Source: a bacterium
Lineage (GTDB): Bacteria; Bacteroidota; Bacteroidia; Bacteroidales; Marinilabiliaceae
Assembly (NCBI GenBank): GCA_963620665.1
Contig: CAVFBA010000006.1
Span: forward strand, 2,083 to 66,082
Direction: 5' to 3'
Length of the DNA stretch: 64,000 nt
A program made the position numbers and the translations under genes. Positions within the stretch are counted from its first letter, which is position 1. Each line of letters opens with the position of its first letter. A model generated the notes under the pieces. The model made no database searches, was not told the DNA's origin, and was given only the letters and a program-made list of their open reading frames with translations. Positions 1,633 through 41,323 of the stretch are shown piece after piece.

Positions 1633-1640
1633 TATCTTTG
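1633..1640 (+). promoter_or_regulatory. Bacteroidota -7 promoter box TATCTTTG upstream of nfo
   Basis: Exact TAnnTTTG match, 28 nt upstream of ATG 1668. Confidence 0.5.
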
Positions 1641-1667
1641 AACTACAACCCACAATACGCACCCACC

Positions 1668-2513
1668 ATGAAATATATCGGAGCTCACGTCAGTGCCAAC
1701 GGAGGCGTCCAATACGCCCCCATAAACGCCCACCAAATAAACGCCACCGCCTTCGCTCTATTCACCAAAAACCAACGTCAATGGCTCGCCAAAGACCTCG
1801 ACCAACTCGAAATCCAAGCCTTCAAAGATAACTGCGCGCAATTCCACTTCTCCCCAAAACAAATACTCCCACACGACAGCTACCTAATCAACCTCGGCAA
1901 CCCCGACAACCAAAAACGCCTTCAGTCCGTCAACTCCCTAATCCACGAGTCACGACGTTGCCACGCCCTCGGCCTCTCCATGCTCAACCTCCACCCAGGA
2001 AGCCACCTCAAAGAAACCGACCCGCACAACTGCCTCAACCTCATCGCCGATAGCCTCAACATCGTCCTGAGCGAGACCCAAGACGTCACTCTCGTCATCG
2101 AGAATACCGCCGGGCAAGGCTCCAACATGGGCTTCGCACTCTGGCATATAGCACACATCATCGAGAGGGTCAACGACACCTCACGCATCGGAGTATGTAT
2201 CGACACCTGCCATACCTTCGCCGCCGGCTACAACATAGCGTCACCCGAGGGCTACAACGACTTCTGGTCCGAATTCGACTCCCTCATAGGCCCGCAATAC
2301 CTGCGCGGCATGCACCTCAACGACTCCCTCAAACCACTCGCCTCTAAGGTCGACCGTCACGCACCACTCGGACAAGGCGCCATAGGCATCGACACATTCC
2401 GCCGACTAATACAAGACCCACGAACCGACAATATCCCACTCATCCTCGAAACCCCCGACGACTCCCTATGGCCCACCGAAATAAACACCCTCAAATCCTT
2501 TATCACACAATAA
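1668..2513 (+). CDS. nfo: Deoxyribonuclease IV (endonuclease IV)
   Basis: MKYIGAHVSANGG...LNLHPGSH...VIENTAGQGSN...CIDTCHTFAAGY...HLNDS is the Nfo/AP-endonuclease-2 signature set. The track start at 1638 is TTG and overlaps the promoter box, so ATG 1668 is preferred. Confidence 0.9.
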   Translation: MKYIGAHVSANGGVQYAPINAHQINATAFALFTKNQRQWLAKDLDQLEIQAFKDNCAQFHFSPKQILPHDSYLINLGNPDNQKRLQSVNSLIHESRRCHALGLSMLNLHPGSHLKETDPHNCLNLIADSLNIVLSETQDVTLVIENTAGQGSNMGFALWHIAHIIERVNDTSRIGVCIDTCHTFAAGYNIASPEGYNDFWSEFDSLIGPQYLRGMHLNDSLKPLASKVDRHAPLGQGAIGIDTFRRLIQDPRTDNIPLILETPDDSLWPTEINTLKSFITQ

Positions 2514-2517
2514 CGCC

Positions 2518-3117
2518 ATGCCTCGCGCAATCGCCTTCATAACTCTCCTCATAGCGGCATTCCTCATAGCTGGCCCCGCGGCGCATGCGCAAAACTCCCA
2601 CCGCAACGTTCTCGTCCGTGCACATATCATCAATGGCGACACCATCCCCGACGTCCGCCTCGGCGAAGTCCAAATACTCGCTCGAGCCAAGTTCAAAAAC
2701 GAACGACAGCGACGTAAATGGACCCGCTATGTCTACAACGTCAAAAAAGCTCTACCCTACGCCCGGCTTATAGCACGCGAGCTGACTTTCATCAACGACA
2801 CCCTCGCCATGCTCCAAACCCCCGAAGAACAACAAGCCTTCATCGACCGTAAAGAGGTCTACCTCTTCAAAAAATACGAAACCCGGCTCAAACACCTCAC
2901 CATAAAGCAAGGACGTATCCTAATCAAACTCGTCGACCGAGAGACAGGTCATACCAGCTACGAACTTATCCACACCCTCAAAGGCGGATTCAAAGCCTTC
3001 TGGTGGCAAGGAATAGCCTGCCTCTTCGGCTCTAACCTCAAGACGCACTACGACCCACTGGGCGAAGATAAAAACCTCGAGAACGTCGTCCTCCTAATCG
3101 ACCAAGGCTACTACTAA
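2518..3117 (+). CDS. DUF4294 family secreted protein
   Basis: Signal peptide (AFLIAGPAAHAQ), then KKALPYARLIAREL ... IKQGRILIKLVDRETGHTSYELI ... FKAFWWQ, a pattern I recognise from Bacteroidota DUF4294 proteins. Confidence 0.6.
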   Translation: MPRAIAFITLLIAAFLIAGPAAHAQNSHRNVLVRAHIINGDTIPDVRLGEVQILARAKFKNERQRRKWTRYVYNVKKALPYARLIARELTFINDTLAMLQTPEEQQAFIDRKEVYLFKKYETRLKHLTIKQGRILIKLVDRETGHTSYELIHTLKGGFKAFWWQGIACLFGSNLKTHYDPLGEDKNLENVVLLIDQGYY

Positions 3118-3121
3118 ACAC

Positions 3122-4273
3122 ATGCCCCGCCTGCTCGCTCTCCTAATCCTACTCCTCACACCCCTCCACGCCCGCCCACAGGCGCACGACACCATCCCAC
3201 TGCCCCTACGCGCCGCCAACAACGTAATTCAACTGGCAGAGTCAATCCTCGACGCCCTGACCATCACACAACCCAAACTCTCACTCGCCCTATACCCCGC
3301 CGCCGCCTACTCCTCTCGCTCCGGACTCGCCATAGGCATAATGCCCATGCTCCAGCTACACACAGCTCGCCTGCCACGTCCCATAACCATAACCCCATCC
3401 GCCCTCGTCTCCACTAAACGCATGTTCCAAATACAATGCGACGCCGACCTGTTCTTCAACAATAACCTCGACCTGACCCTCAAATTCGAGTCCCAACACC
3501 AACCCGACGACCTCTACACCATCGGCAACCAATCTCACAAACTCCCCATAGCTCAATACAACTACCGACGACAACTACTCACCGCCGACCTCCTCAAAGG
3601 ACTCAACCGCCTCCCGACTCTCCGACTCGGACTGTCACTCGACTTCGACCACTACTCATTCTCCAACATCTCCCCCACCCCATCCGACTCACTGACCGCC
3701 CTCTCCCTCACCACATCCTCCGCCGGCCATAACCTCGGCATAGGACTAACACTCGGCATAGACTCCCGCGACAATACCCTATCACCCTCACGAGGCTCAT
3801 TCTCCCGTCTGCGGCTCCTCGCCTACTCCCGACTGTCCCACGCCTCACCCTACGCCGCGCTATCCCTCGACGCCCGACGCTACCTCCCCATACGCTCCTC
3901 AGTCCTCGCACTCCATGCCTTCGCCGACATCCGTCTCGGACACGACATACCCTTCCCAAAACTCGCCACATGCGCCGGCACACGACTCGGACGCGCCATA
4001 GGCCACAACCTCAAATACCTCGACCGCGCCGCCTGGCTCGCGCAAGCCGAGTTCCGCGCCCCACTGTTCTGGCGCATAGGCGGCACACTATTCACCGCCG
4101 TAGGCAACGTCACTCACACACCCGCCACCCTCATCTCACACGTCCACCTGATGTGCGGTGCCGGACTGCGCCTCGCCGTGTTCCCAGGCAAAGGCCTCAA
4201 CCTACGACTCGACGCCGGACTGTCTCAACGCGGCGATAAGGCCATATACTTCAATATCCGCGAAGCATTCTAA
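3122..4273 (+). CDS. Omp85/BamA-TamA family outer-membrane beta-barrel protein (surface antigen D15-like)
   Basis: Signal peptide, alternating amphipathic beta-strand pattern, GIDSRDNTLSPSRG and the DARRYLP motif typical of the D15 barrel domain. The C-terminus ends in aromatic F. Confidence 0.55.
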   Translation: MPRLLALLILLLTPLHARPQAHDTIPLPLRAANNVIQLAESILDALTITQPKLSLALYPAAAYSSRSGLAIGIMPMLQLHTARLPRPITITPSALVSTKRMFQIQCDADLFFNNNLDLTLKFESQHQPDDLYTIGNQSHKLPIAQYNYRRQLLTADLLKGLNRLPTLRLGLSLDFDHYSFSNISPTPSDSLTALSLTTSSAGHNLGIGLTLGIDSRDNTLSPSRGSFSRLRLLAYSRLSHASPYAALSLDARRYLPIRSSVLALHAFADIRLGHDIPFPKLATCAGTRLGRAIGHNLKYLDRAAWLAQAEFRAPLFWRIGGTLFTAVGNVTHTPATLISHVHLMCGAGLRLAVFPGKGLNLRLDAGLSQRGDKAIYFNIREAF

Positions 4274-4308
4274 CCTCACCACCACGACAACCCCAAAATG
4301 GGGCTTAT

Positions 4309-4374
4309 ATGCTCCTTGCATGCTCCGTGCATGCTCCAACAATGCTACAACAATGCTCCGCGGATGCTACACAA
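4309..4374 (+). repeat. Six tandem 11-bp units carrying the heptamer ATGCT(C/A)C
   Basis: Units are atgctccttgc, atgctccgtgc, atgctccaaca, atgctacaaca, atgctccgcgg and atgctacacaa. They are contiguous with an exact 11-bp period. Confidence 0.9.
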
Positions 4375-4726
4375 CTCAACACCGCTCTCTCGTAAAACAA
4401 CAAATGGCTCTCCACGACAATGTTTATGCGCCATTTTTACCACCTTTCTCCAAATATCCCCACACAACACCCTCCCACAACGCCCATCATACCGTCGTAT
4501 ACCCCACAATCGCCCTTTTTCGTCTCTCCTTGAAGTATAAACAATTTTCCCGCTATTTTCGGTCAATGTCAATTCTCCAATTCCTTCCTCTTTCCGCAAA
4601 TATCCCACCCCTCTCACCCTCCCGCAACGCCCATTCCACAGTCGTATGAGTGACGAACGCCATCTCCCGCCATCCCTTAGCCTTTCTCCAAACACGTCCC
4701 CTCTTGCGCATTCCGCCTTTAATCCC

Positions 4727-4734
4727 TATCTTTA
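4727..4734 (+). promoter_or_regulatory. -7 promoter box TATCTTTA upstream of sdaA
   Basis: Near-consensus TAnnTTTG, 24 nt upstream of ATG 4758. Confidence 0.4.
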
Positions 4735-4757
4735 TTCCACACTAACCCCCACCCACA

Positions 4758-5969
4758 ATGAAGAGCATCAAAGAGATTTTCCGCATCGGCAATGGCCCCT
4801 CAAGCAGCCACACCATGGGCCCACGTCGTGCCGCCGAGCTGTTCCTCGAACGCCACCCCGACGCCCGGCACTTCGAGGTGACCCTCTACGGCAGCCTCGC
4901 CGCGACAGGACGTGGACACCTCACCGACCGTGCCATCCTCGAAGCCCTGTCGCCCTCCGCCCCCACCAACATCCTATGGCACCCCGAGACAATCCTCCCA
5001 TTCCACACCAACGGCATGGACTTCAAAGCCTTCGACGCCAATAACAACCCAATCGACTCATGGCGTGTATACAGCATCGGGGGCGGAGCTCTTAGCGACG
5101 GCTCCCAATCCGGTGGACAATGGCAACCACCCGACATATACCCTCTGACACACATGACCGACATCATCCACTGGTGCAGCCACACCGGCAAAAGTTACTG
5201 GGAGTACGTCAACGACTACGAAGACCACGACCTCTGGGACTACCTCGCACAAGTATGGGACGCCATGAAATCCGCCATACACAACGGCCTCGAGAACGAG
5301 GGCGTCCTCCCAGGCCCTCTCCACCTCCGACGCAAAGCCTCAGCCTACTTCTACCGCTCCAGCGGCTCCAAACCCAACCTCCAGAGCCGTGGCCTCGTCT
5401 TCGCCTACGCTCTCGCCGTGAGCGAGGAAAACGCCGGCGGTGGGCGCATCGTGACAGCACCAACATGCGGCTCTTGTGGCGTACTGCCCGCCGTACTCTA
5501 CCACCTCGCCAAAACCCGCGACTTCTCCGACACCCGCATCATGCGAGCACTCGCCACCGCCGGACTAATAGGCAACATCGTCAAAGAAAATGCCTCAATA
5601 GCCGGTGCAGAAGTCGGATGCCAAGGCGAAGTGGGCGTAGCTTGCGCAATGGCCGCCGCAGCCGCCAACCAACTATTCGGTGGCAGCACAACGCAAATAG
5701 AATACGCCGCCGAGATGGGTCTCGAACACCACCTCGGCATGACCTGCGACCCCGTTTGCGGCATGGTCCAAATACCCTGCATCGAGCGCAACGCCTACGC
5801 CGCCGCTCGAGCCCTCGACGTCAACCTCTACTCCACATTCTCCGACGGACGGCACCGCATATCCTTCGACCATGTCGTAGAGGTTATGAAACAAACAGGC
5901 CACGACCTGCCCTCACTCTACAAAGAGACAAGCGAAGGAGGGCTCGCCAAAGTCGAAATAGACGACTGA
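4758..5969 (+). CDS. sdaA: L-serine ammonia-lyase (iron-sulfur dependent, single chain)
   Basis: N-terminal [15 protein letters not shown] plus [10 protein letters not shown] and [16 protein letters not shown] cluster-binding motifs. Confidence 0.9.
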
Positions 5970-6061
5970 CACCCCACCACACTCCCCAATATCGCCTATT
6001 TCACACATATTTTCGTTAACTTTGCGTGTTTGGCATCGTCGCCAATCTCTCAACTTAACCA

Positions 6062-7387
6062 ATGGATATCCTCGTCATAATCCTTCAGCTCCTCCTTAGC
6101 CTCTCCATCCTCGTCATAACCCACGAGGCAGGACACTTCACCTTCGCCAAACTCTTCGGCATTAAAGTCGAAAAGTTCTACCTCTTCTTCGACCCCTGGT
6201 TCTCGCTCTTCAAATTCAAAAAAGGCGACACCGAATACGGCATAGGATGGATCCCTCTCGGCGGATACGTCAAGATTGCTGGCATGGTCGACGAATCCAT
6301 GGACACCGACCAACTCAAGCAACCTATGCAGCCATGGGAGTTCCGTGCCAAACCCGCTTGGCAACGACTGCTCGTCATGGTAGGTGGCGTGCTCGTCAAC
6401 CTCATAACAGCGCCCATCATCTTCTGGCTCCTCGCCTACTCCTACGGCGACACCTACCTCCCCCTATCACAAGCACGCTACGGATTCGAATTCGGCGACG
6501 CCCTGAAATCAGTAGGATTCCACGATGGCGACTACATCGTCGGCATAAACGGAAACCCCGCCGAAGCCTACAAAGACGTGGCTAACCCCATTATCTTCGA
6601 CGACACATGCTCCGTCGACATCATCCGCAACGGCAACCCTCTCTCCATAAAACTCCCACACGAGTTCTTCCGCACCATCCTCAAGGGCGACGGCAACCAG
6701 GCGCTGTTCTCGTTCCGCACCCCCGTCGTCGTCGACTCCATTCTCCCTGGCAGCCCCGCCGAGCAATACGGCCTACTACGAGGCGACTCCGTCACACAAG
6801 TGGCCAACATCCCCAACCCCTCATTCTCACGCTTCTTAGCCACCCTCGACAGCCTCAAAGGGCAGCCCACGCAAATAATCGTTGTCCGCGCCACAGGCAA
6901 CACCGACACTCTCAACGTCAACGTCAGCAACTCCGGACGACTCGGTTTCTACGCATACCCTCCCTCACGATGGTTTCAGACCAAGACACGCCACTACTCC
7001 CTCCTCGAAGCCATCCCCGCCGGCATAACCAAGGGCAAAGACCTGCTCGTCAACTACTGCAAGCAGATCCCTATGCTCTTCACCCGCGAAGGAGCTACCA
7101 AAGTAGGCGGTTTCGGCACAATAGCCAAGATGTTCCCAACATCATGGAACTGGCAAGCCTTCTGGTTCAACACAGCTTTCCTCGCCATAATTCTCGCCGT
7201 GATGAACATCCTACCCATTCCAGCTCTCGACGGCGGCCACGTGCTCTTCCTCCTCATAGAGGTCATAACAGGACGAAAGGTCAGCGACAAAGTGCTCGAA
7301 GTGGCGCAAACAATAGGCATGATACTACTCCTCGCTCTCGTGCTATACGCCAACGGGGCGGACATCGTGCGAGCCCTAATCGACTAA
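6062..7387 (+). CDS. rseP: RIP (site-2) zinc metalloprotease RseP
   Basis: HEAGHF zinc motif in TM1, a central PDZ-like region, and the C-terminal NILPIPALDGGH motif. Confidence 0.9.
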   Translation: MDILVIILQLLLSLSILVITHEAGHFTFAKLFGIKVEKFYLFFDPWFSLFKFKKGDTEYGIGWIPLGGYVKIAGMVDESMDTDQLKQPMQPWEFRAKPAWQRLLVMVGGVLVNLITAPIIFWLLAYSYGDTYLPLSQARYGFEFGDALKSVGFHDGDYIVGINGNPAEAYKDVANPIIFDDTCSVDIIRNGNPLSIKLPHEFFRTILKGDGNQALFSFRTPVVVDSILPGSPAEQYGLLRGDSVTQVANIPNPSFSRFLATLDSLKGQPTQIIVVRATGNTDTLNVNVSNSGRLGFYAYPPSRWFQTKTRHYSLLEAIPAGITKGKDLLVNYCKQIPMLFTREGATKVGGFGTIAKMFPTSWNWQAFWFNTAFLAIILAVMNILPIPALDGGHVLFLLIEVITGRKVSDKVLEVAQTIGMILLLALVLYANGADIVRALID

Positions 7388-7397: not shown

Positions 7398-8594
7398 ATG
7401 ACCCCCAAAGGCTCCTCACACTGGCATCTCTGCCTCCTCATGCTGGCGGGAGTCCTATTGCTGTCATCTCTACTCCCCACCACCGCCTCCGCGCAAGGAC
7501 TCGGCACAAACCCCCAAGTGCCCGACTACATCTACGCGCGCCGCATGGAGAAGCTCGACCAGCAAAGCCCCATAACACTCGAGTACAACACCCAAGTAAG
7601 GGCATACATAGACGTCTACCTCGTCCGACGACGCGACCACCTCGCCAACATCATAGCCCGCTCCGAACTCTACTTCCCCATATTCGAGGAGTATCTCAGC
7701 AAATACAACCTGCCACAAGAACTTAAATACCTCGCCGTGATAGAAAGCGCGCTCGACCCAAAAGCCATATCCAAATCGGGAGCAATGGGGCTATGGCAGT
7801 TCCTCTACCACGCCGGGCTTATGATGGACCTCAACGTCACAAGCTACGAAGACGACCGTTGCGACGTGCGCAAGAGCACCGACGCCGCATGCCGCTACCT
7901 GAAATACCTCTACCAGAACCTCGGCGACTGGCAACTCGCGCTCGCCGCATACAACGGCGGTCTCGGACAAGTGCAAAAGGCACAGCAACGTGCCGGGGCA
8001 GACAAAAAAAACTTCTGGCAACTAAGCCCCTACCTCACCCCCGAGATGCGCTCCTACGTGCCTGCCTTCATCGCCGTGAACTACGTCATGAACTACTACA
8101 AGCTGCACAACATAACACCTGCCATCCCAACCTTCACTATCGACGACATAGACACCGTCTACGTCAACATGTCGCTCTCTTTCGACCAGATAAGCCGAGC
8201 CTCGGGCGTGAAACGAGACGTGCTGCAACAGCTCAACCCACAATACGTCAAGGACTTCATCCCCTACGACGACACCCCGCGCCGCCTGACACTGCCACGC
8301 GCCAACATCAGCCGATTCCTGCGCAATGAACGACAGCTGCGACCCGACACCGAGCCAGACCTCACAGGCTACTTCGGCAACGTCATAATACGACGCGACA
8401 CCATAACACACCTCGTGGAGAAAGGAGACTACCTCCACAAGATAGCCATGCGCTACCACCTCACAGTGGCGCAAATCATGGAGTGGAACAACATGACGAC
8501 TAAGGACGTCAAGATAGGCCAGCGGCTCACGATAATATTCGACCGCGAGATATCACCATTCTTCTTCGTGGTCAACGAATTGGCAATGAAATAA
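7398..8594 (+). CDS. Lytic murein transglycosylase (MltD-like) with a C-terminal LysM domain
   Basis: SLT catalytic signature (VIESALDPKAISKSGAMGLWQF ... AAYNGG) and LysM (HLVEKGDYLHKIAMRYHLTVAQIMEWNN). Signal peptide present. Confidence 0.85.
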   Translation: MTPKGSSHWHLCLLMLAGVLLLSSLLPTTASAQGLGTNPQVPDYIYARRMEKLDQQSPITLEYNTQVRAYIDVYLVRRRDHLANIIARSELYFPIFEEYLSKYNLPQELKYLAVIESALDPKAISKSGAMGLWQFLYHAGLMMDLNVTSYEDDRCDVRKSTDAACRYLKYLYQNLGDWQLALAAYNGGLGQVQKAQQRAGADKKNFWQLSPYLTPEMRSYVPAFIAVNYVMNYYKLHNITPAIPTFTIDDIDTVYVNMSLSFDQISRASGVKRDVLQQLNPQYVKDFIPYDDTPRRLTLPRANISRFLRNERQLRPDTEPDLTGYFGNVIIRRDTITHLVEKGDYLHKIAMRYHLTVAQIMEWNNMTTKDVKIGQRLTIIFDREISPFFFVVNELAMK

Positions 8595-8608
8595 CACAAC
8601 AGAGAGAA

Positions 8609-9622
8609 ATGTCTATACGCTACACACTCATGCTCGCCACCATGGCGGGACTCGCCACCCTCACGGGATGCAAGAAGACCCTCGACCAGGCCTTCAAGGC
8701 ACAAGCCACAGGCCGTGCGGGCGAGATTCTCGTCGTGATGCAAGACGCGCACAAGACCGACACCGCGGGACTTTACATGGAGAGCATGTTTGGCGACACA
8801 TACGCCGGGCTGCCCGCCGACGAGCCGATATTCGAGATGCACACCGTGGCACCCCCATTCTTCGACTACGAGATGCACAAGCTGCGCAACCTCGTCGTGG
8901 TCAGCATAGCCGACACCGTGACGACCGACACCGTGACTTTCGTGCGCGACGCATGGGCGCAGCCTCAGGCCGTGATGTACCTCAAAGCCAAGACACCACA
9001 GCGCGCAGCCGACGTGCTACGACGCAACCACATACGCGCCATATCCTATTTCGTGAAGGCGGAGCGCGACAGGCTGATAGGCTACTACACGAAGCATATC
9101 AACGCCAAGCTCATGGCACAGGTGCAGAAGCGGTGGGACGTGTCGATAACGATACCCAACGAGTATGACAAGTGCAACCCGGAGCATGCCGACAGCATCT
9201 CGTGGTTCTGCTGCGACACGCGCGAGTATCAGGATGGACTGATAATCTACACGTTCCCATATACCGGGGCGGAGTGCGTGAGCAAGGAGAGCTTGCTGAA
9301 CAGGCGCGACGTGGTGCTGCGCGCTAACGTGGGCGGGCCGTTCAACTCGGTGATGTGCACAGAGCGCAGGCCGCCGATGGACGAGGAGATAGTGTTTCAG
9401 CAGGGGACGTACAAGGGAGCGTTTGTGAGCGAGTTGAGGGGATTATGGCGCATGGAGGGCGCGGCGATGGGAGGGCCGTTCCTTATGCGGGCCGTGGTGG
9501 ATACGGCCAAGGCGCGTGTGATAGTGACCGACGGCTACGTGTTCTATCCCTCACGCGAGATGAAGAGAAACCATATACGGTCACTCGAGGCTATCATGTA
9601 TACCCTCAACCTGACTAAGTAA
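8609..9622 (+). CDS. DUF4837-like lipoprotein
   Basis: Lipobox LATLTGC, 337 aa. The overall pattern and the position directly upstream of pdxA match what I recall for Bacteroidota DUF4837. Family assignment is tentative. Confidence 0.5.
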   Translation: MSIRYTLMLATMAGLATLTGCKKTLDQAFKAQATGRAGEILVVMQDAHKTDTAGLYMESMFGDTYAGLPADEPIFEMHTVAPPFFDYEMHKLRNLVVVSIADTVTTDTVTFVRDAWAQPQAVMYLKAKTPQRAADVLRRNHIRAISYFVKAERDRLIGYYTKHINAKLMAQVQKRWDVSITIPNEYDKCNPEHADSISWFCCDTREYQDGLIIYTFPYTGAECVSKESLLNRRDVVLRANVGGPFNSVMCTERRPPMDEEIVFQQGTYKGAFVSELRGLWRMEGAAMGGPFLMRAVVDTAKARVIVTDGYVFYPSREMKRNHIRSLEAIMYTLNLTK

Positions 9623-9644
9623 ATAACGATAAGCATCAGACAAC

Positions 9645-10691
9645 ATGAAGATTGGCATAACACAGGGCGACGTCAACGGCATCGGCTACGAGGTCATAAT
9701 GAAAGCCCTTCAGGACATGGAGATACTCGAGGACTTCACGCCCATCATCTATGGGTCGCCCAAGGCCGCGGCGTATCACCGTAAGGCGTTGAACGTGGCA
9801 CAATTCAGCCTTAACAACATCAACACACCCGACGAGGCGCACCCGAAGCGGATAAACATCATCTCGTGTGGCGACGACAACATCAAGGTGGAGCTGGGCA
9901 AATCGACGGAGGCGGCGGGCATGGCGGCGTTTCAGGCACTCGAGGCGGCTGTGCACGACCTGAGCGACGGGTTGATAGACGCGGTAGTGACGGCCCCTAT
10001 CAACAAGAAGAACATCCAGAGCGAGGAGTTTCACTTCCCCGGGCATACGGAGTATTTGGAGCAGGCGGCACAGGCACCGGCGTTGATGCTGCTCGTGGCG
10101 GGCAAACTGCGTGTAGGCGTGGTGGCGGGTCATGTGCCGATCTGCCAAGTGGCGCAATATATCACAGAGGACAAGATATTGAGCAAGTTGCGCATACTGA
10201 ACCGCTCGCTGCGTCAAGACTTCAACATAGACGGCCCACGCATTGCGGTGTTGGGGCTGAACCCTCACTCGGGCGACCATGGGTTGCTGGGTCAGGAGGA
10301 GGAGACGATCATCGGGCCTGCGATAGAGAAGGCTCAGGCGGAGGGTATATGCGCCATGGGCCCGTATCCTGCCGACGGGTTGTTCGGGTCGTCGGCGTTG
10401 GGCAAGTTTGACGCTATATTGGCGATGTACCATGACCAGGGGCTCGCGCCGTTCAAGGCGTTGGCGTTCACGTCGGGCGTCAACTTCACGGCTGGGCTGC
10501 CGATAATACGGACGTCGCCGGACCATGGCACGGCGTATGACATAGCGGGGCTTGACAAGGCGGACCCGACGTCTATGCGCGAGGCGATATATTTGGCTAT
10601 GGATATTGTGCGCAACCGCGCGACGAACAAGGAGCTTGAGGCCAACAAGCTGACCACGAAGGTGGAGACCCGCGCGGAGCGCAACGCGTAG
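9645..10691 (+). CDS. pdxA: 4-hydroxythreonine-4-phosphate dehydrogenase
   Basis: MKIGITQGDVNGIGYEV ... FPGHTEYL ... GLNPHSGDHG ... MYHDQGL ... IRTSPDHGTAYDIAG are the PdxA signatures. Confidence 0.9.
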   Translation: MKIGITQGDVNGIGYEVIMKALQDMEILEDFTPIIYGSPKAAAYHRKALNVAQFSLNNINTPDEAHPKRINIISCGDDNIKVELGKSTEAAGMAAFQALEAAVHDLSDGLIDAVVTAPINKKNIQSEEFHFPGHTEYLEQAAQAPALMLLVAGKLRVGVVAGHVPICQVAQYITEDKILSKLRILNRSLRQDFNIDGPRIAVLGLNPHSGDHGLLGQEEETIIGPAIEKAQAEGICAMGPYPADGLFGSSALGKFDAILAMYHDQGLAPFKALAFTSGVNFTAGLPIIRTSPDHGTAYDIAGLDKADPTSMREAIYLAMDIVRNRATNKELEANKLTTKVETRAERNA

Positions 10692-10694
10692 GGG

Positions 10695-11645
10695 ATGGGT
10701 GTGGTAGGTCGCTTCGCGCCGTCGCCGAGCGGGCGTATGCACCTTGGTAACATATTTGCGGCATTGATGAGCTACGCCTCCGCCAAATCGAGGGGGGGGG
10801 CGTGGCTTGTGCGTATAGAGGATTTGGATCGTCAGCGATGCAAGGGGGAGTATGCGGAGCAGATAGTGGACGATTTGTTGTGGCTGGGGTTGAGGCCTGA
10901 CGAGGGTGCGGGGGCGGAGAGTGAGGGGGCGCATGGGCCGTATTACCAGAGTCGGCGCGACGGGATATATGAGCGTGAGTTTGCGCGGTTGAGGGAGCTG
11001 GGACTTGTGTATGAGTGTTTTTGCCGGAGGCAGGATTTGACTGCCGCCTCGGCACCGCACGCGTCGGATGGGCACACGATATACGCGCGGACGTGCCTGG
11101 GGCTGTCGGAGTTGGAAAAGGAGGTGATGCGCGGGCGGAGGAGCCCGGCGTGGAGGATGTATCTGCCCGACGAGATGAGCTGTTTCTGCGACGGGCATTA
11201 TGGGGAGCAGAGCGCGAATTTGGCGCGGGACCGTGGTGACTTCATTGTGCGGCGGGGTGATGGTAATTTCGCATATCAGCTGGCGGTGGTGGTGGACGAC
11301 GCGTTGATGGGGGTGACGGAGGTGGTGAGGGGGAGGGACTTGATGTCGGCGAGCCATGAGCAGGGTTATTTGTTGCGCGCGTTGGGGTATGACGTGCCGC
11401 GTTATGCGCATTTCCCGTTGCTGTTGTCGCCAGACGGGGCGCGGTTGAGCAAGAGGGACAGGTCGTTGGCGATGGACGTCATCCGGAAGAAGTTGCGGCC
11501 AGAGGAGCTTGTGGGGCTTATGGCGTGGGCGGTGAAGATGGAGGGGCGTTGGCGGCCGATGAGCGTGGGGGAGTTTGTGGAGAGGTTTCGTTGGGAAGAT
11601 ATACCCAAGGGTGATATCACGATAGACGCGTCGAGTTTGTTTTAG
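10695..11645 (+). CDS. gluQ: tRNA glutamyl-Q(34) synthetase (GluQRS)
   Basis: GRFAPSPSGRMHLGN (HIGH-type motif), truncated GluRS catalytic domain, LSKRD (KMSKS-like), about 316 aa without an anticodon-binding domain. Confidence 0.85.
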   Translation: MGVVGRFAPSPSGRMHLGNIFAALMSYASAKSRGGAWLVRIEDLDRQRCKGEYAEQIVDDLLWLGLRPDEGAGAESEGAHGPYYQSRRDGIYEREFARLRELGLVYECFCRRQDLTAASAPHASDGHTIYARTCLGLSELEKEVMRGRRSPAWRMYLPDEMSCFCDGHYGEQSANLARDRGDFIVRRGDGNFAYQLAVVVDDALMGVTEVVRGRDLMSASHEQGYLLRALGYDVPRYAHFPLLLSPDGARLSKRDRSLAMDVIRKKLRPEELVGLMAWAVKMEGRWRPMSVGEFVERFRWEDIPKGDITIDASSLF

Positions 11646-11653
11646 AGAATATT

Positions 11654-11683
11654 AAAGGGCGGCCACCGGAGTGACTGCCCTTC
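11654..11683. terminator. Hairpin between the convergent gluQ and membrane-protein genes
   Basis: aaagggcgg ... ctgcccttc gives an 8-9 bp stem with one G-T pair. The T-tract is weak. Confidence 0.35.
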
Positions 11684-11707
11684 GTTGTGTGTTAATATTC
11701 AGGGAGA

Positions 11708-12643
11708 TCAGTTTTTATTGAGGAATAGCCCCGGGATGCTTGAGGCGAGGATGGCGTAGGCGCTGCCGAGCGCGACTTGTACGGGGAATGTCCATATATC
11801 GGCCGCCGGGATGAGGAGTGAGAGTAGCGCGACGGAGAGCGCGGGGGCGTAGGTTTTGCGGAATATGGCGAACATCAGCACCATTGCGATGAGGGTGAGC
11901 AGCCCCGCCCAGAAGAGGTTGAAGCCGAGGGATTGGCATATCACGGTGAACGCGGCTCCAGCTCCTGCGCCATAGAGGAGCATGAAGAGGACTTGCCAGG
12001 GGCGGTTGCGGAAGCCGCTTGCGCCGTGGGAGAACTCGAGGAGCGTCACGATGACCGGGGGTGCGACGAGATATATCCAGCTTGTGAGCCATCCTGCGGC
12101 GCATAGGGGGATGGTGCATAGGAAGAGGATGCCCATGCGCCGGAATCCCACGACCTCGTTTTTCTCGGCACGCGGCTTGACCATTGGGACGCGGAAGGAG
12201 CGCACGCGTGATAGCTCGAGGAGCCATTGCACGAGGAGGACGATGAAGACCATCAGGGCCACGACAAGGACGTAGCGCCAGTCGGCTATGCGGAGGATGA
12301 CGGGGAGGAGCGCGGCGCCGAGGGCTGGGGGCAGCTGTGCGCGGAGCGAGACGAGCATCAGGCCGGAGACGAGCAGCGTGGCGGGGACGGTGAGCCAGAC
12401 ACCGAACGAGCCGAGATAGAGCTGCGCGGCGACACCTATGGCGGAGGCTAAGGACATGACGAACAGGCACATGAGCTTGCTGACGTGCCATACGTTTTTG
12501 TCCAAGACCAGCAGGCCAATGCAGAGTGCGCCAAGTTCGGGGAAGAGGATGAGTTCGTTGGCCGACGCTTGCCAAGCGACAAGCATCAGCACGACGACTA
12601 TTATGGCGGTCAGTTCCCTGATATAATTTCCTTTAGAGCTCAT
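11708..12643 (-). CDS. Polytopic inner-membrane protein (possibly HPP family)
   Basis: 311 aa with about 9 hydrophobic segments and recurring (A/L)PxALGAALLP-like motifs. The overlapping 286-aa ORF in another frame is R/P/H-rich and rejected. Confidence 0.55.
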   Translation of the reverse strand: MSSKGNYIRELTAIIVVVLMLVAWQASANELILFPELGALCIGLLVLDKNVWHVSKLMCLFVMSLASAIGVAAQLYLGSFGVWLTVPATLLVSGLMLVSLRAQLPPALGAALLPVILRIADWRYVLVVALMVFIVLLVQWLLELSRVRSFRVPMVKPRAEKNEVVGFRRMGILFLCTIPLCAAGWLTSWIYLVAPPVIVTLLEFSHGASGFRNRPWQVLFMLLYGAGAGAAFTVICQSLGFNLFWAGLLTLIAMVLMFAIFRKTYAPALSVALLSLLIPAADIWTFPVQVALGSAYAILASSIPGLFLNKN

Positions 12644-12691
12644 AGCTGAATAGGGTTTAAGTGGGGCGGGGGGGGGTGCGCGGGGAGGGGC

Positions 12692-12955
12692 GCGGTTAGT
12701 GGGAGACGATGTCTATGAGCCTTTGTTTGAGCTCGTTGATGTCGGTTACTACGGGATGCGGTTAGTGGGAGACGATGTCTATGAGCCTTTGTTTGAGCTC
12801 GTTGATGTCGGTTACTACGGGATGCGGTTAGTGGGAGACGATGTCTATGAGCCTTTGTTTGAGCTCGTTGATGTCGGTTACTACGGGATGCGGTTAGTGG
12901 GAGACGATGTCTATGAGCCTTTGTTTGAGCTCGTTGATGTCGGTTACTACGGGAT
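12692..12955. repeat. Perfect 4 x 66-bp tandem repeat covering the thrH 3' end, its stop codon and 6 nt downstream
   Basis: The unit gcggttagtgggagacgatgtctatgagcctttgtttgagctcgttgatgtcggttactacgggat recurs with tta (the stop, reverse strand) at 12696, 12762, 12828 and 12894. Confidence 0.95.
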
Positions 12956-13499
12956 ATTGTGGGTAGTCGGCCTTGACGTTGTCGGGTGGGCAGAAGAGGA
13001 TGCCCTTGTCGGCGGCCTGGAGCATAGTGACGTCGTTGTAGGAGTCGCCGAATGCTACGACATTGTATTTGAGGCTTTTGAAGGCTTCGACGGTTTTGCG
13101 TTTGGGGTCGGGCTGTCGGAGTTTGTAGTTGGTGATGCGTCCGTTTTGGTCGGTTTCGAGGCTGTGGCAGAGGAGGAAGGGGTTTTCGAGTTTATCCATG
13201 AGTGGTTGCGCGAACTCGACGAAGGTGTCGCTGACGATGGCGAAGCGTGCGAGTTTGCGTATTTCGCGTACGAACTCGAGCGCACCGGGGAGGGGGTCGA
13301 GCGTGCCTATGACATCTTGGATGTCGTGGAGTGTGAGGTGATGCTCGTCGAGGATGCGGAGACGCATCTTCATGAGTTCGTCGTAGTCTTTAATGTCCCT
13401 GGTGGTGAGTTTAAGTTCCTCGATACCAGTCTTTTTCGCCACATTGACCCATATCTCTGGCACGAATACGCCCTCGAGGTCAGCGCAAATAATCCACAT
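12894..13499 (-). CDS. thrH: Bifunctional phosphoserine phosphatase / homoserine phosphotransferase ThrH
   Basis: Near-collinear with the Pseudomonas ThrH sequence I recall (DLEGV.VPEIW ... TTRDI.DYD.LM..RLRILDEH ... SDTF.EF.QPLM ... LRQ.DPKR ... GDSYND..ML). HAD DxD motif at the N-terminus. Confidence 0.85.
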   Translation of the reverse strand: MWIICADLEGVFVPEIWVNVAKKTGIEELKLTTRDIKDYDELMKMRLRILDEHHLTLHDIQDVIGTLDPLPGALEFVREIRKLARFAIVSDTFVEFAQPLMDKLENPFLLCHSLETDQNGRITNYKLRQPDPKRKTVEAFKSLKYNVVAFGDSYNDVTMLQAADKGILFCPPDNVKADYPQYPVVTDINELKQRLIDIVSH

Positions 13500-13527
13500 T
13501 TTTTTTATAATTATCGTGTTGTGGGGA

Positions 13528-13535
13528 CAAATATA
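13528..13535 (-). promoter_or_regulatory. -7 promoter box TATATTTG for thrH
   Basis: Reverse complement of caaatata, 29 nt upstream of ATG 13499. Confidence 0.5.
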
Positions 13536-13695
13536 GGGTTTTTCGTCGGATAGTCAAGTGTGGAGGTGGGGGTGAGTGTGGAGAAAAGTGGGTCATGGGG
13601 TGGGAGGAATTGTTAAAATTGGGTATGGTTGTGGTTTGTAAGTATGTGTGAGATAGCGATTTGATGAGTATTTTTTTCTTGAAAATCGGGGTTTG

Positions 13696-13739
13696 ATGCT
13701 TCTGTGATGCTTCAAGTATGCTTCATTTATGCACCTTTG
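13696..13739 (+). repeat. Four tandem 11-bp units carrying ATGCTTC / ATGCACC
   Basis: Units are atgcttctgtg, atgcttcaagt, atgcttcattt and atgcacctttg. Heptamer starts at 13696, 13707, 13718 and 13729. Confidence 0.85.
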
Positions 13740-13829
13740 AATAATGTTTGTAGGAGTTTGGTAGGAGTTAGGGAAGAGGGTGAGGGGAGAATGTGTGGGG
13801 GAGGGGTTGTTTTTTGCGGGTTTTTAGCG

Positions 13830-13837
13830 TAGCTTTG
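13830..13837 (+). promoter_or_regulatory. -7 promoter box TAGCTTTG for the DUF4290-murA operon
   Basis: Exact TAnnTTTG match, 39 nt upstream of ATG 13876. Confidence 0.5.
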
Positions 13838-13875
13838 CGCATTTAGTGTGCGTTAAGCAGAATAACACAAAGATA

Positions 13876-14619
13876 ATGGATTATAATACCTCACGCGAGA
13901 GGCTTCCGATGCCCGAGTATGGGCGCAACATACAGCAGATGGTGGATTATGCTCTGACGATTGAGGATCGCGACGAGCGTACGAACTGCGCGGCAACGAT
14001 AGCGAATGTCATTTTGATACTGTTCCCACAGTTGAAGAACGATGCTAATTATGTTCAGAAGGTGTGGGACGGCATAGCGATGATGGCGAATTATCGTCTT
14101 GACGTGGACTCGCCATATCCGTTGCCGCAGCGTCAGGAGGCGACAGTGGCGCCGCAGAATCATATACCGTACCCTATGACGAGGATACGTTTGCGGTCGT
14201 ATGGCATCATGGTGCAGAACATGTTGCGGTCGGCGGTCAATGCGGATAGCGAGGAGGAGCGGATGGCGACAACGGCGCTTACGGCCCTTTATATGAAGCG
14301 GCTTATATTGCAGAACGGCAAGGACAGCAATGTGGAGATGCGCGTGGCTAATGACATAGCGGATCTTACTGATGGCCAGCTTAATTATTCGTTCGAGGAG
14401 CTAATGGACTCGTTGCCAGACGACCAGACTTTGTATCCACGTCAGCAATGGGGCGACAGGCATCAGCAGCCGGAGCGGTTCCCACAGAATGACGGTCGGT
14501 ATCAGCAGGGAGGGGGTAAGCAGCGTCATTTCCACTTCAATCAGAACCGTCAGGGTGGCGGTGGGAAGCAGCAGGGCGGGGGTAATTTCCGTTTCAATCG
14601 TAACAAGAAGAGATATTAA
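13876..14619 (+). CDS. DUF4290 domain protein with a Gln/Gly/Arg-rich C-terminal tail
   Basis: MDYNTSRERLPMPEYGRNIQQMVDYA... is the conserved DUF4290 N-terminus, and it sits immediately upstream of murA as in other Bacteroidota. The track start at 13846 is GTG upstream of the promoter-proximal ATG. Confidence 0.75.
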   Translation: MDYNTSRERLPMPEYGRNIQQMVDYALTIEDRDERTNCAATIANVILILFPQLKNDANYVQKVWDGIAMMANYRLDVDSPYPLPQRQEATVAPQNHIPYPMTRIRLRSYGIMVQNMLRSAVNADSEEERMATTALTALYMKRLILQNGKDSNVEMRVANDIADLTDGQLNYSFEELMDSLPDDQTLYPRQQWGDRHQQPERFPQNDGRYQQGGGKQRHFHFNQNRQGGGGKQQGGGNFRFNRNKKRY

Positions 14620-14636
14620 CGGCGCCACACTGCACT

Positions 14637-15944
14637 ATGAGCGGTACATTCATCATTGAGGGCGGTCGCCCGCTTAACGGCACGATAACGCCCCAGGGGG
14701 CTAAGAATGAGGCGTTGCAGGTGCTATGCGCCACGCTCTTGACTAAGGAGGAGGTTGTGATAGACAACATTCCGGACATACTGGACGTGAACAACCTGAT
14801 AGACCTGCTTGGTTGCATGGGTGTCAAGGTGTGGCGCGAGGGACGTCATAAGTGCCATTTCCAGGCGGAGAACGTGGATATGGACTATCTGCAGTCGGAC
14901 GATTTCAAGCGTCGGGCGTCGTCGTTGCGGGGGTCGATCATGATAGTGGGGCCGTTGTTGGCGCGGTTTGGGAGGGCCTACTTCCCGAAGCCTGGGGGGG
15001 ATAAGATAGGTCGGCGTAGACTTGACACGCATTTCTATGGTTTTTCGAGGCTTGGGGCTAAGTTCGACTTTGACTTTGGCCAGTTCTTCTACTCGGTGTC
15101 GGCGGAGAATCTGCATGGGGAGTATATATTGCTGGATGAGGCGTCGGTGACTGGCACAGCCAATACGCTTATGGCGGCGGTGATGGCTAAGGGTACGACG
15201 ACAATCTATAATGCGGCGTGCGAGCCATATTTGCAGCAGTTGTGCAAGATGTTGGTGTCGATGGGAGCGAAGATATCGGGTATAGGGTCGAACCTGTTGA
15301 CTATAACCGGGGTGGAGTCGTTGGGTGGTTGCTGTCATAGTGTGTGGCCAGACATGATAGAGGTGGGGTCGTTCATTGGTATGGCCGCGATGACTGCCGG
15401 GGATGTCACGATACGCAATGCGGGGGTTGAGCAGTTGGGGATTATACCGCTTGCGTTCCGGCGTATGGGTATTGAGATGGAGATCAATGGTGACGACATA
15501 CGCATACCGTCGCAGAAGCATTATACTATCGACTCGTTTATTGACGGGTCGATTATGACCGTCGCGGACGCTCCTTGGCCGGGTTTGACACCGGATTTGC
15601 TTAGTGTGTTCTTGGTTGTGGCGACTCAGGCGCGAGGGAGTGTGCTGATACATCAGAAGATGTTTGAGAGTCGGTTGTTCTTCGTGGATAAGCTCATTGA
15701 TATGGGGGCGAAGATCATATTGTGCGATCCTCACCGTGCCACCGTCATAGGGCTTGACCGCGAGACGCAGTTGCGTGGGACGACTATGACATCGCCCGAT
15801 ATTCGTGCGGGTGTCGCCTTGCTCATTGCGGCGTTGTCGGCACAGGGGACGAGCACTATACATAATATCGAGCAGATAGACCGCGGGTATCAGTATATAG
15901 ACAAGCGTCTGACAGACCTTGGCGCGGTAATATCTCGTCTGTAA
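14637..15944 (+). CDS. murA: UDP-N-acetylglucosamine 1-carboxyvinyltransferase
   Basis: FIIEGGRPLNGTITPQGAKNEAL ... KPGGDKIGRRRLDTH ... full-length (435 aa) EPSP/MurA fold signatures. Confidence 0.95.
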   Translation: MSGTFIIEGGRPLNGTITPQGAKNEALQVLCATLLTKEEVVIDNIPDILDVNNLIDLLGCMGVKVWREGRHKCHFQAENVDMDYLQSDDFKRRASSLRGSIMIVGPLLARFGRAYFPKPGGDKIGRRRLDTHFYGFSRLGAKFDFDFGQFFYSVSAENLHGEYILLDEASVTGTANTLMAAVMAKGTTTIYNAACEPYLQQLCKMLVSMGAKISGIGSNLLTITGVESLGGCCHSVWPDMIEVGSFIGMAAMTAGDVTIRNAGVEQLGIIPLAFRRMGIEMEINGDDIRIPSQKHYTIDSFIDGSIMTVADAPWPGLTPDLLSVFLVVATQARGSVLIHQKMFESRLFFVDKLIDMGAKIILCDPHRATVIGLDRETQLRGTTMTSPDIRAGVALLIAALSAQGTSTIHNIEQIDRGYQYIDKRLTDLGAVISRL

Positions 15945-15956
15945 AACAGCTTAACT

Positions 15957-17513
15957 ATGAGCCATATAGCCAAATACGCCATAGAGGCCGCAGCGTTCAT
16001 GTTTCTTGTGCTGACGGTAGTGCCGGCCATGGGGCAGAAGTATGACAAGAAGGCGGACGAATACTTTGAGCATCACTGTTTCGAGAAGGCTACGGAGCGG
16101 TATCTCAAGGTGTTCCAGTCTAACCCGTCGAACAAGGCTAATCCTAAGCTGCTGCGTCGTATAACGGAGTCGATACTCAACTCGGAGATGGTGCGCGACA
16201 CGGCACGTTACTTTGCCGACCTGTATCTTCAGTTTGAGCCAGAGGATGCAGAGGCTTACTTCCTGGCTGCTGAGGCGCACTATCATGCCCACGACTTTGA
16301 CATAGCGTTGCAACGACTTGACTCGTTCATGGTGCGTGCCACGAGTGAGCAGGATATTATTGACGCTGATTTGCTTAACTCGTGGATTCGCAATGCTAAG
16401 CGGATGCTACGTGACACGTTGCGCAACCCGATCATCAACCTTGGCGATGTCATAAACACACGTAATAACGAGATTAACCCATACATCGTCAATGATGGTC
16501 ACAGCCTGGTGTTCTCGTGCGACAGCAAGTATGACCGTGAGGCTGGTATAACGGTGTTCAACATCATGTATGCCGACCAAACGGCGTTGTCGTGGAGCCC
16601 GGCCAAGAAGGTGTCGGGCATCAATACCCTTGCCGACGAGTATCCCACGGGTCCCGCACCTGATGGGTTCTTCTACTGCTCTAATAACTCGGGGTCGGAG
16701 TTCAGTCTCAACTATACTCAGTACACCACGGGGGGCAGGTGTAGTAATTCGCAGAAGATGTCTAAGCCCATCAATATGCCTGGCAGTGAGGTGGCCGGGT
16801 GCCTCTCGCCATCGGGCGACACGCTCTACTTCTCGGCCACTAACGGTTATGGCGACCTCGACATATACTACTCCATTCGCTCGTATAATGGCCAATGGAT
16901 GACCCCGCGCCCTATACCTGGGCTCGTCAATCAAGAGGGGTTCAATGAGAATTACCCGTACGTGGCAAATGACGGCACTCGACTGTATTTCGCCTCGAAC
17001 CGTGAGGGTACTATGGGTGGCTACGACATATACTACTCCGACTTTGACTTCCGCAAGTATGAGTGGAGCAAGCCCGTGCAATTGCCGTATCCCATAAACG
17101 ACACGTATGACAATATGACCATCTCGTTCTCTCCCGACAACCGTTACGCATACGTCTCGTTGTTCCGTGGCGACAGTATGGGAGGGCGAGACATATATGC
17201 TATACTATTCGACCATGTTCTCCCGTCGTCGGCCATAGTCAAGTATAAGGTCGATGTGCGTAATGCGAAGCGTAAGTCGGTGAAGATAAGTTCACAGCCC
17301 CGTATTGAGATCCGCAACGACTATGGCGACTTGGTGGCCATAGAGCGTATCAATATGCGTACCAACTCGTTTGTAGTGGTGCTCGACCCTGGCACGTACA
17401 TCATGACTATCGACCTCGAAGGTACTAAGCACTACGAGGAGACGATAGTCGTGGCTGAGCGCTCGTATGACGCAGTACCTACCGAAAAGTCTATAACCCT
17501 TGATGCCCTCTAA
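15957..17513 (+). CDS. TPR plus PD40 (TolB-like WD40) repeat protein
   Basis: Signal peptide, N-terminal TPR-like helices, repeated PD40 motifs (NEINPYIVNDGHSLVFS; GCLSPSGDTLYFS; NENYPYVANDGTRLYFASNR; GGYDIYYS) and a C-terminal beta-sandwich. No OmpA domain. Confidence 0.7.
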   Translation: MSHIAKYAIEAAAFMFLVLTVVPAMGQKYDKKADEYFEHHCFEKATERYLKVFQSNPSNKANPKLLRRITESILNSEMVRDTARYFADLYLQFEPEDAEAYFLAAEAHYHAHDFDIALQRLDSFMVRATSEQDIIDADLLNSWIRNAKRMLRDTLRNPIINLGDVINTRNNEINPYIVNDGHSLVFSCDSKYDREAGITVFNIMYADQTALSWSPAKKVSGINTLADEYPTGPAPDGFFYCSNNSGSEFSLNYTQYTTGGRCSNSQKMSKPINMPGSEVAGCLSPSGDTLYFSATNGYGDLDIYYSIRSYNGQWMTPRPIPGLVNQEGFNENYPYVANDGTRLYFASNREGTMGGYDIYYSDFDFRKYEWSKPVQLPYPINDTYDNMTISFSPDNRYAYVSLFRGDSMGGRDIYAILFDHVLPSSAIVKYKVDVRNAKRKSVKISSQPRIEIRNDYGDLVAIERINMRTNSFVVVLDPGTYIMTIDLEGTKHYEETIVVAERSYDAVPTEKSITLDAL

Positions 17514-17515
17514 CC

Positions 17516-18909: not shown

Positions 18910-18930
18910 CCCACTCCATCCTCCCCCGCC

Positions 18931-27350: not shown

Positions 27351-27493
27351 ATCATCTCTTTACAACACATCATTCTTAACCAAACACGCATGGGCGCACA
27401 TGCCGAGACAACGCCTGCACCACCTCAAGGCCGCACCAGAGGCGCATAAAAAACCTAACGGCAACCTACCCACAACGGGGCGTAAAGACGCCG

Positions 27494-41302: not shown

Positions 41303-41323
41303 CTGTCTGTTGTCGTCTGTTGT

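Follow-up and report, generated by a model that had tools for sequence, protein, structure and literature searches.

Base-composition skew is the standard read-out of replication direction in bacterial chromosomes, and local anomalies of skew are routinely taken as inversions or as foreign DNA. In animal mitochondrial DNA (mtDNA), skew is graded with the time that a strand spends single-stranded, and it is reversed after inversion of the control region. Skew jumps and N-domains at eukaryotic origins, and the origin-independent over-replication seen in recG or rnhA mutants of Escherichia coli, are further cases in which extra initiation is accompanied by graded termination. Two reports on animal mtDNA describe a reversal of polarity with gene order unchanged (PMC3269012, PMC4182315), and at the BU-1 locus in DT40 cells a G-quadruplex (G4) or other structure is an obstacle only when on the leading-strand template, its effects reaching about 4.5 kb and including kilobase-sized post-replicative gaps (PMC4282387). 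The BU-1 system is vertebrate, has an epigenetic read-out with about 0.02 events per division, and is one-sided (PMC4282387). Here we describe a stretch of 64 kb of chromosomal DNA (the window) from an uncultured gut Bacteroidales bacterium, in which strand asymmetry is reversed over about 8 kb of housekeeping genes that have kept their order, together with a short repeated element, one copy of which (Eii) lies near the centre of the reversed region. The original prediction, made from the sequence of the window, had pointed to a change from C-rich to G-rich within a string of co-oriented genes that includes those for a DUF4837 protein, PdxA and GluQ.

The region resembles several of these systems in part. 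As at an ordinary replication origin (ori) or terminus (ter) of bacteria, GC and AT skew change sign regardless of gene orientation and the two sides are mirrored in composition and substitution spectrum; unlike there, two switches lie 8 kb apart, each edge is a ramp of about 3.5 kb in coding DNA, DnaA boxes and a dif-like site are wanting, and the whole feature is absent from sister genomes of the same order. An inversion or an acquired island would likewise give a block of a few kilobases with skew opposite to its surroundings, but the genes here are collinear with those of anomaly-free relatives, the edges are gradual and lie within intact genes, and the asymmetry is actively maintained rather than decaying. 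Animal mtDNA offers comparably extreme skew at fourfold-degenerate sites, loss of bases from the exposed strand, graded skew and reversal without a change of gene order, whereas the present reversal is local (8 kb) and is found in a large bacterial chromosome with no known replication control region. The BU-1 locus may share the orientation dependence and has a kilobase range around a short motif; however, an explanation of that type would here need to operate in most rounds of replication, on both sides and with base composition as the read-out, and few canonical G4 motifs are present in Eii. Eukaryotic skew jumps and E. coli over-replication are alike in that extra initiation events change fork direction locally, with graded termination, but the upward jumps in eukaryotes are sharp at the initiation site, and the recG and rnhA effects are mutant phenotypes confined to the terminus area, whereas nothing marks a terminus here. 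In our literature searches, we met no account of collinear bacterial genes whose strand asymmetry is mirrored locally and actively maintained.

The closest records in public databases are two contigs of metagenome-assembled genomes (MAGs), CAVCVH010000003.1 (122 kb) and CAVIMV010000008.1, with 99.8% identity to the window. Window-type genomes (W) were compared with 1) a relative of about 91% nucleotide identity, labelled 'uncultured Marinilabiliaceae' (L005, L006 and L027-L029), 2) a sister clade of gut MAGs (L001 and L007-L009), in which DUF4837 has 76-77% amino-acid identity to that of the window, and 3) a further relative, the cattle-rectum MAG L010. Genes were identified by Pfam and NCBIfam matches and copies of the element by nhmmer. 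Unless stated otherwise, skews refer to fourfold-degenerate sites and are always expressed in terms of the + strand, whatever the orientation of the gene.

In the raw sequence, GC skew was -0.2 to -0.45 at 1-8.6 kb and +0.15 to +0.46 at 9.2-15.6 kb. AT skew was reversed along with the fourfold-site GC skew, from between +0.4 and +0.6 to between -0.3 and -0.6. Gene by gene, GC skew rose from -0.73 in the M50 protease gene through the SLT/LysM transglycosylase gene (SLT) to 0.00 in DUF4837, and from there through pdxA (Table 1) to +0.79 in gluQ, which had the strongest inverted skew of the region; about 10 C per G were counted until about 7.3 kb, and at the other extreme up to 17 G per C. The original prediction held that DUF4837 begins with C-ending and finishes with G- or T-ending codons, that the change lies within intact genes of one orientation, and that pdxA and gluQ continue in the G-rich style, all of which was borne out. 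The first half of DUF4837 had a third-position G:C of 53:82 and the second half one of 83:53 (Fisher p=4e-4; keto against amino bases, p=8e-5). When the left edge was fitted, a linear ramp (7604-10859), which has one parameter more, did better than the best single step, with a difference in log-likelihood (delta lnL) of 13.6; that step was placed at 9124, inside DUF4837, and neither the step nor the preferred ramp left an abrupt change at the intergenic gaps (8595-8608 and 9623-9644), where by the original prediction one would have meant a simple inversion. In L005, the ramp was likewise favoured over the step (delta lnL 27.3) and was shifted about 0.6 kb leftward, by many scattered directional point changes and no divergent block.

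The former polarity is regained in a second, equally gradual ramp, which the original prediction had missed together with the extraordinary skew of the background. This right ramp crosses the genes for a PD40/OmpA-like protein, a DEDD exonuclease and an FAA hydrolase and the start of a histidine kinase gene. Neither ramp had a block structure in a runs test (left, z=-0.46; right, z=+1.93), the sites behaving as if drawn independently along a smooth gradient. With midpoints at 9.23 and 17.56 kb, the region is about 8.3 kb wide at half height and centred at 13.4 kb. Between the ramps, genes of both orientations are G-rich on the + strand, as is the intergenic DNA, and the composition of the core at fourfold sites in L005 was G.64, T.22, C.09 and A.05. 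What had been reported as a flip is the left-hand shoulder of a 'mirror island' of 8.3 kb in un-rearranged genes. The same profile was present in about ten W-type assemblies from separate samples (99.3-100% identity), in three L005-type assemblies from ENA and in one MAG from GTDB.

Outside the island, C outnumbered G about tenfold on the + strand and A was commoner than T, in genes of either orientation, and C exceeded G over the whole window (21,782 versus 12,733). GC skew was -0.77 to -0.95 in most of the fifteen genes at 19-46 kb, and in nearly all of nine minus-strand and four plus-strand genes there; in + strand terms, the histidine kinase gene (+) had G36:C409, and DUF5686 (-) and U32 (-) each had G12:C190-192. 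In asnB, C:G at fourfold sites was as high as 35:1. The flank composition in L005 was C about.72, A.18, G.07 and T.03, and the C-rich domain runs to the right as far as at least 72 kb, apart from a partial anomaly at 49.6-56 kb. Because the bias ignores gene orientation, the background is a strand-specific mutational asymmetry and neither a codon nor a transcription effect; its size is comparable to that in animal mtDNA and far beyond the usual bacterial values. In the sister clade, the strand effect is weaker and is joined by a coding-strand preference for C, with skews of -0.6 to -0.8 in plus-strand genes and of about -0.2 to 0 in minus-strand genes.

Gene order from APendo2 to the histidine kinase gene (HK), and all orientations, were identical in ten related loci; the sister clade, and L010-L014 as far as they cover the stretch, share this synteny from AP-endonuclease to histidine kinase. 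A simple inversion, against which the original prediction had already argued, is ruled out by this conserved synteny, and the gradual edge agrees. Despite identical synteny, the sister clade (L001 and L007-L009) and L010 were C-rich throughout the stretch and had no switch, and the island with the same ramps was found in L005, L006 and L029. Since it occurs in both W and L005 types and not in the syntenic sister clade, the island arose in the common ancestor of W and L005, after the split from the sister clade and without rearrangement.

Between W and L005, fourfold divergence was 0.277 for the left flank, 0.274 for the left ramp and 0.264 for the core. Base retention between the two, calculated without an outgroup, was C.85, G.52, A.52 and T.22 for the flank; the core gave G.84, C.51, T.63 and A.46, and values in the ramps were intermediate (DUF4837, G.77 and C.77). 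The commonest synonymous exchange was A<->C in the flank (1638-7387) and G<->T in the core (10695-15944), so that the transversion spectrum is mirrored too. This transversion-rich spectrum hints at an oxidative or nucleotide-pool (mutT-like) component besides deamination. When changes at codon positions 1 and 2 were polarised by a unanimous sister-clade outgroup, the flank had 21 G>A versus one C>T, and the core had 18 C>T and 18 A>G versus four G>A and one T>C, a pattern found in both lineages separately. In a decay model, a perfect mirror image was evolved under the flank's empirical substitution matrix since the W/L005 split; it predicted a skew of +0.38 with A (.20) above T (.10), and the observed island had skews of +0.62 and +0.75 with T (.19-.22) far above A (.05-.07). 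Taken together, the equal divergence, mirrored retention, polarised changes, failure of the decay model and smooth ramps show that a mirror-image substitution process is at work in situ at present and that its strength is graded towards the edges. A recombination mosaic, which the original prediction had proposed to look for, is not what these comparisons show: divergence stays at 0.26-0.28 across flank, ramp and core, the ramps are smooth, and the substitutions since the W/L005 split are mirrored. Within-strain variation amounted to 155 single-nucleotide polymorphisms among about 12 W-type genomes, of which 20 are in the core, a number too small to give a direction at compositional equilibrium; the G-rich gluQ of L011 is an isolated weak feature in a low-skew genome and is uninformative. 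It was also noticed that right of about 15.6 kb (15600-19800) the divergence between W and L005 falls from about 9% to about 5% at all sites, and from 0.27 to 0.18 at fourfold sites, which suggests either recombination between the two lineages or slower evolution there.

A negative-to-positive switch of the origin type is present, with the skew rising across 7.6-10.9 kb, and the original prediction had read it as the signature expected at an origin while noting that no dnaA, DnaA-box cluster or AT-rich unwinding region was visible. That absence was confirmed: no dnaA gene and no AT-rich unwinding region were found at the flip, where the GC content is 0.54-0.60, and our search for DnaA boxes gave no cluster there, with a single one-mismatch box (9141) near the switch. 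Coding DNA runs through the whole left ramp, the spacers at the switch measuring 14 and 22 bp. The new polarity is not kept for a replichore; it reverts at 15.7-19.5 kb and is then negative to at least 72 kb. A replication origin was therefore rejected, given the lack of a DnaA-box cluster, the gradual switch over a 3.3-kb ramp that is coding throughout, the return about 8 kb downstream and the absence of any switch in syntenic sister genomes. A terminus was rejected as well, the search for a dif-like site having found none. Searches for tRNA and Rfam features likewise found none.

A repeated element of about 350-450 bp (about 380 bp for Eii) was found, consisting of a 34-nt box (CGTCACACTCACGACTGAAAAGTGGGCGATGCGG), 100-280 nt of further sequence, three to six GATGCWTC units and a G-rich tail. 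The units are near-palindromic and phased every 11 bp; arrays of them occur at 4309-4365, 13696-13735 and 50057-50118, upstream of genes, and look like a phased protein-binding array, such as iterons, ParR sites or repressor sites. This clade, over about 85 kb of sequence, has four copies (Ei to Eiv); the sister-clade loci that were examined have none. Eii is 0.1-0.3 kb away from the island centre, and the insertion of about 230 bp that holds it is missing from the sister clade. Three G-rich anomalies, namely patch 0 upstream of a P-type ATPase gene, the island described above (island 1) and a second, weaker anomaly (island 2), each have a copy whose G-rich strand is the + strand, and for all four copies the G-rich one of the element's strands is also the one that is G-rich locally. 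No copy lies in the long and largely uniform C-rich stretches at 19.5-49 kb and 56-72 kb, and the flip at 9.1-9.2 kb coincides with the midpoint between Eiii and Eii (9.07 kb). With four copies, the link between element and island is a lead, not proof. In metagenomes of the Joint Genome Institute (JGI), the box pattern gave 0 matches and the array pattern gave 120, none of which was homologous to the element.

The P-type ATPase gene of patch 0 lies just left of the window (about -1700 to +177 in W coordinates). Its 5' 1,050 nt and the preceding gene are strongly G-rich (0.75-0.9), and the polarity falls within about 300 bp, just after the DKTGT motif, in a gene that is intact. This switch is common to W-type and L005-type genomes and is maintained in situ, no phylogenetic mosaic was found across it, and retention was G.86 and C.60 in the 5' part and C.83 and G.66 in the 3' part. 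Because retention is mirrored here as well, and without a mosaic, mirror domains are not unique to 9-17.5 kb, and their edges can be sharp or graded. The second anomaly comprises genes for GH25, an amidohydrolase-like protein and two thioredoxin-like proteins, followed by grpE-dnaJ; it is ambiguous, since in the distant relative L021 the skew of these four genes is weak or positive as well.

The simplest statement of these results would be that the + strand, rather than the - strand, is exposed within the island, because composition and spectrum are both mirrored. Loss of C and A is expected from damage to single-stranded DNA, as in replication-linked skew and mitochondrial asymmetry, and the losses from the disfavoured strand were C>T, C>G, C>A and A>G. 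We tentatively favour, as a serious possibility short of a probable account, a role of the element as an orientation-dependent obstacle or entry point that exposes the normally protected strand over a few kilobases; the place of Eii at the centre, the rule of orientation seen in the four copies and the oppositely oriented copy without effect all point this way. The G-rich strand of Eii is on the strand spared by the background process, which on the usual reading of skew would be the leading-strand template. An obstacle or entry point on this normally protected template may, in most rounds of replication, lead to uncoupling of helicase and polymerase with a post-replicative gap, or to an equivalent short swap of leading and lagging roles. 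The spared strand would then be left single-stranded for a few kilobases on either side of the element, damage of the single-strand type, with its loss of C and A, would be borne by the + strand rather than the - strand, and the two ramps of about 3.5 kb would reflect variation in where the exposed stretch ends. The wider proposal, that a short mobile or repeated element swaps, in an orientation-dependent manner, the strand bearing the replication-associated mutation load over about ±4 kb and so creates heritable, self-maintained 'mirror domains', is put forward more tentatively still.

Several points weigh against this account. The link to the element depends on four copies, with none further retrieved, and only island 1 is symmetric about its copy: patch 0 stops sharply within the ATPase gene, 1.2 kb to the right of Ei, and most of island 2 is found to the right of Eiv. 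There are few canonical G4 motifs, with one on the + strand of the window, outside Eii, which is too few to support a version in which the obstacle is specifically a G4. A near-perfect mirror would come automatically with fork reversal, whereas a gap model needs exposure in almost every round. The leading-strand assignment is a reading of skew, and single-stranded exposure is deduced from composition and spectrum. Finally, the element could be a passive marker whose orientation of insertion follows strand identity.

Fork direction might instead be truly reversed over the island. Replication would then have to start within 7.6-10.9 kb in nearly every cycle, with the element involved or not; the rightward fork would die at 15.7-19.5 kb, at leaky barriers or on meeting an incoming fork, and the leftward fork would merge with the background. 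A negative-to-positive switch followed by a positive-to-negative one is the formal signature of initiation and then termination, the core mirrors the flank in composition and in its whole substitution spectrum, including the dominant transversion class, and the intermediate retention in the ramps fits a mixed direction of replication. However, the initiation zone would be 3.3 kb of uninterrupted coding DNA, its two short spacers included, with no DnaA-box cluster or AT-rich segment, and we know of no initiation zone of such a kind in bacteria. In addition, an 8-kb island with a full plateau would need either a site-specific barrier or timing precise to seconds, and the only clade-specific sequence occupies a central place in the island and is not near the left edge. 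We regard local fork reversal as unlikely, though the main rival, and rank an obstacle or entry point at the element above it, leaving part of the probability unassigned.

It is very improbable that the island is a relic whose skew is now decaying, be it a segment brought in by homologous recombination from a relative with the locus turned the opposite way to replication, or one left by a long-lasting inversion that was later flipped back. A recombination mosaic would explain switches inside intact genes, such as the sharp one in the ATPase gene just left of the window, and a clade-specific central element could have arrived with the donor DNA. Against this, divergence from L005 is equal in core, left ramp and left flank; G is stable and C unstable within the island, the opposite of what decay would produce; and the decay model, with its skew of +0.38 and A above T, is well removed from the observed +0.62 and +0.75 with T far above A. 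The ramps are without block structure and no mosaic is seen across the ATPase switch, and the island genes keep the order of similarity of the species tree, being consistently nearer to the sister clade than to L010. An inversion with ends inside genes would, moreover, have destroyed those genes. On these sequence comparisons, the relic explanation is largely refuted.

Slightly less probable again, and contradicted by the minus-strand genes, is an effect of selection or transcription, be it selection on codon usage, transcription-coupled repair or R-loops on the non-template strand of island genes. Of the nine genes in the island, seven lie on the + strand, and the sister clade has a coding-strand preference for C-ending codons, both of which would suit such an effect; but in + strand terms the minus-strand hyp311 and thrH genes, and likewise the intergenic DNA, agree in polarity with the neighbouring plus-strand genes, plus-strand genes of the flanks have the opposite polarity, and on the left side the bias grows toward the 3' end of the SLT-to-gluQ string, with no decay from a promoter. 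An artefact of assembly or binning (a chimeric contig or a strain mixture) is scarcely credible, for although every sequence comes from metagenome assembly, the profile is repeated in independent assemblies and all genes are intact.

The gene neighbourhood is an ordinary housekeeping one, with genes for an M50 protease, the SLT/LysM transglycosylase, DUF4837, pdxA, gluQ, a hypothetical protein (-) and a thrH-like HAD phosphatase (-), and further on for DUF4290, murA, the PD40/OmpA-like protein, the DEDD exonuclease, the FAA hydrolase and the histidine kinase (Table 1). The hypothetical protein of 311 aa (hyp311) had no match in Pfam or NCBIfam. An earlier gene call at 12699-13553 (+) proved spurious, the real gene there being that of the thrH/HAD phosphatase on the opposite strand. 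At the end of the latter, a 66-bp unit comprising the stop codon and the final 20 codons of thrH occurs about four times in tandem (12687-12950); it was considered as a cause of the island and rejected, as L005 and other W-type assemblies have just one or two copies.

Table 1. Coordinates of the genes, skew domains, element copies and other features (window positions unless another sequence is named; skews in + strand terms)
Feature	Position	Strand	Basis and remarks
SLT/LysM lytic transglycosylase	7398-8594	+	Pfam; start of ramp, skew -0.47
DUF4837	8609-9622	+	Pfam PF16125, E=3.6e-70; intact, half-height point; fourfold G:C 66:66
pdxA	9645-10691	+	Pfam; upper ramp, skew +0.38
gluQ (tRNA glutamyl-Q34 synthetase)	10695-11645	+	NCBIfam TIGR03838, above cutoff; G101:C12
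hyp311 (hypothetical, 311 aa)	11708-12643	-	+ strand skew +0.51; +0.75 in L005
thrH-like HAD phosphatase	12894-13499	-	NCBIfam NF010109; + strand skew +0.82
DUF4290 and murA	13846-15944	+	Pfam; right half of plateau, skews +0.50 and +0.57
Left ramp (holds the reported flip)	7604-10859		Keto (G/T) fraction 0.17 to 0.81, linear, midpoint about 9.2 kb; 40-site bins
Plateau	10860-15652		G/(G+C) 0.65-0.95; gluQ (+), hyp311 (-), thrH (-), DUF4290 (+), murA (+)
Right ramp	15653-19470		Keto fraction 0.78 to 0.18; delta lnL 26.9 over step
Ei	Left of window, upstream of ATPase gene	G-rich strand +	In G-rich patch; W-type assemblies break within Ei
Eii	13496-13875	+	nhmmer E=9e-56; degenerate box, four units (13696-13735), G-rich tail, then DUF4290 promoter region
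Eiii	4278-4759	-	nhmmer; opposite orientation, in C-rich domain; spacer there 31 bp in sister clade
Eiv	49782-50216	+	nhmmer E=3e-94; box 49918-49951, array 50057-50118; left side of second anomaly
Second, weaker anomaly	49600-56000		Skew -0.77 to about 0 (GH25, amidohydrolase-like gene) to -0.76 by dapA
P-type ATPase gene in L024 and L029	L024, 5986-7860; L029, 10001-11875		
Spurious antisense ORF	9636-11411	-	
Spurious antisense ORF	25650-27449	+	
Spurious antisense ORF	29898-31907	+	
Spurious antisense ORF	39680-41623	+	
Small repeat pairs	31944-31978/34245-34279 and 32023-32060/36051-36088		100% and 95% identical; one with a GC-rich hairpin

Further observations concern the surroundings. 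Because the skew depletes stop codons on one strand, very long spurious open reading frames (ORFs), of as many as 669 aa, lie antisense to genuine genes and are a trap for gene callers, the mis-call at 12699-13553 (+) being an example. A low-GC gene of the GmrSD restriction type has a weaker skew (-0.66), consistent with recent acquisition, and this gene and asnB are flanked by two small intergenic repeat families (region 32351-34165). To the left of the window, in two L005-type assemblies, a HaeIII-like restriction enzyme gene and two C5-methyltransferase genes (L027, 5936-9429) occupy a site at which they are absent in L029, and beside this system about 10 kb of carbohydrate-use genes has weak skew only (+0.1 to +0.25).

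The finding is highly unusual and is robust across independent assemblies and evolutionary comparisons. In this lineage, native, collinear and intact genes have had the mutational roles of their strands swapped and kept swapped, which is neither inversion nor foreign DNA. The extreme bias of the lineage (fourfold skew of about 0.85-0.9) gives kilobase resolution on the sharpness of strand switches, the reach of single-stranded gaps and the lesions that drive skew. If a short element is indeed causal, the behaviour of the replisome at one site, by uncoupling, gaps or unscheduled initiation, would rewrite the composition of neighbouring genes. Mirror domains would then be a new source of compositional heterogeneity, calling for caution in the prediction of ori and ter, in the detection of horizontal transfer and in substitution models; they would alter the codon and amino-acid usage of un-rearranged housekeeping genes and would record the behaviour of the replisome, including uncoupling, gaps and ectopic initiation, at kilobase resolution.

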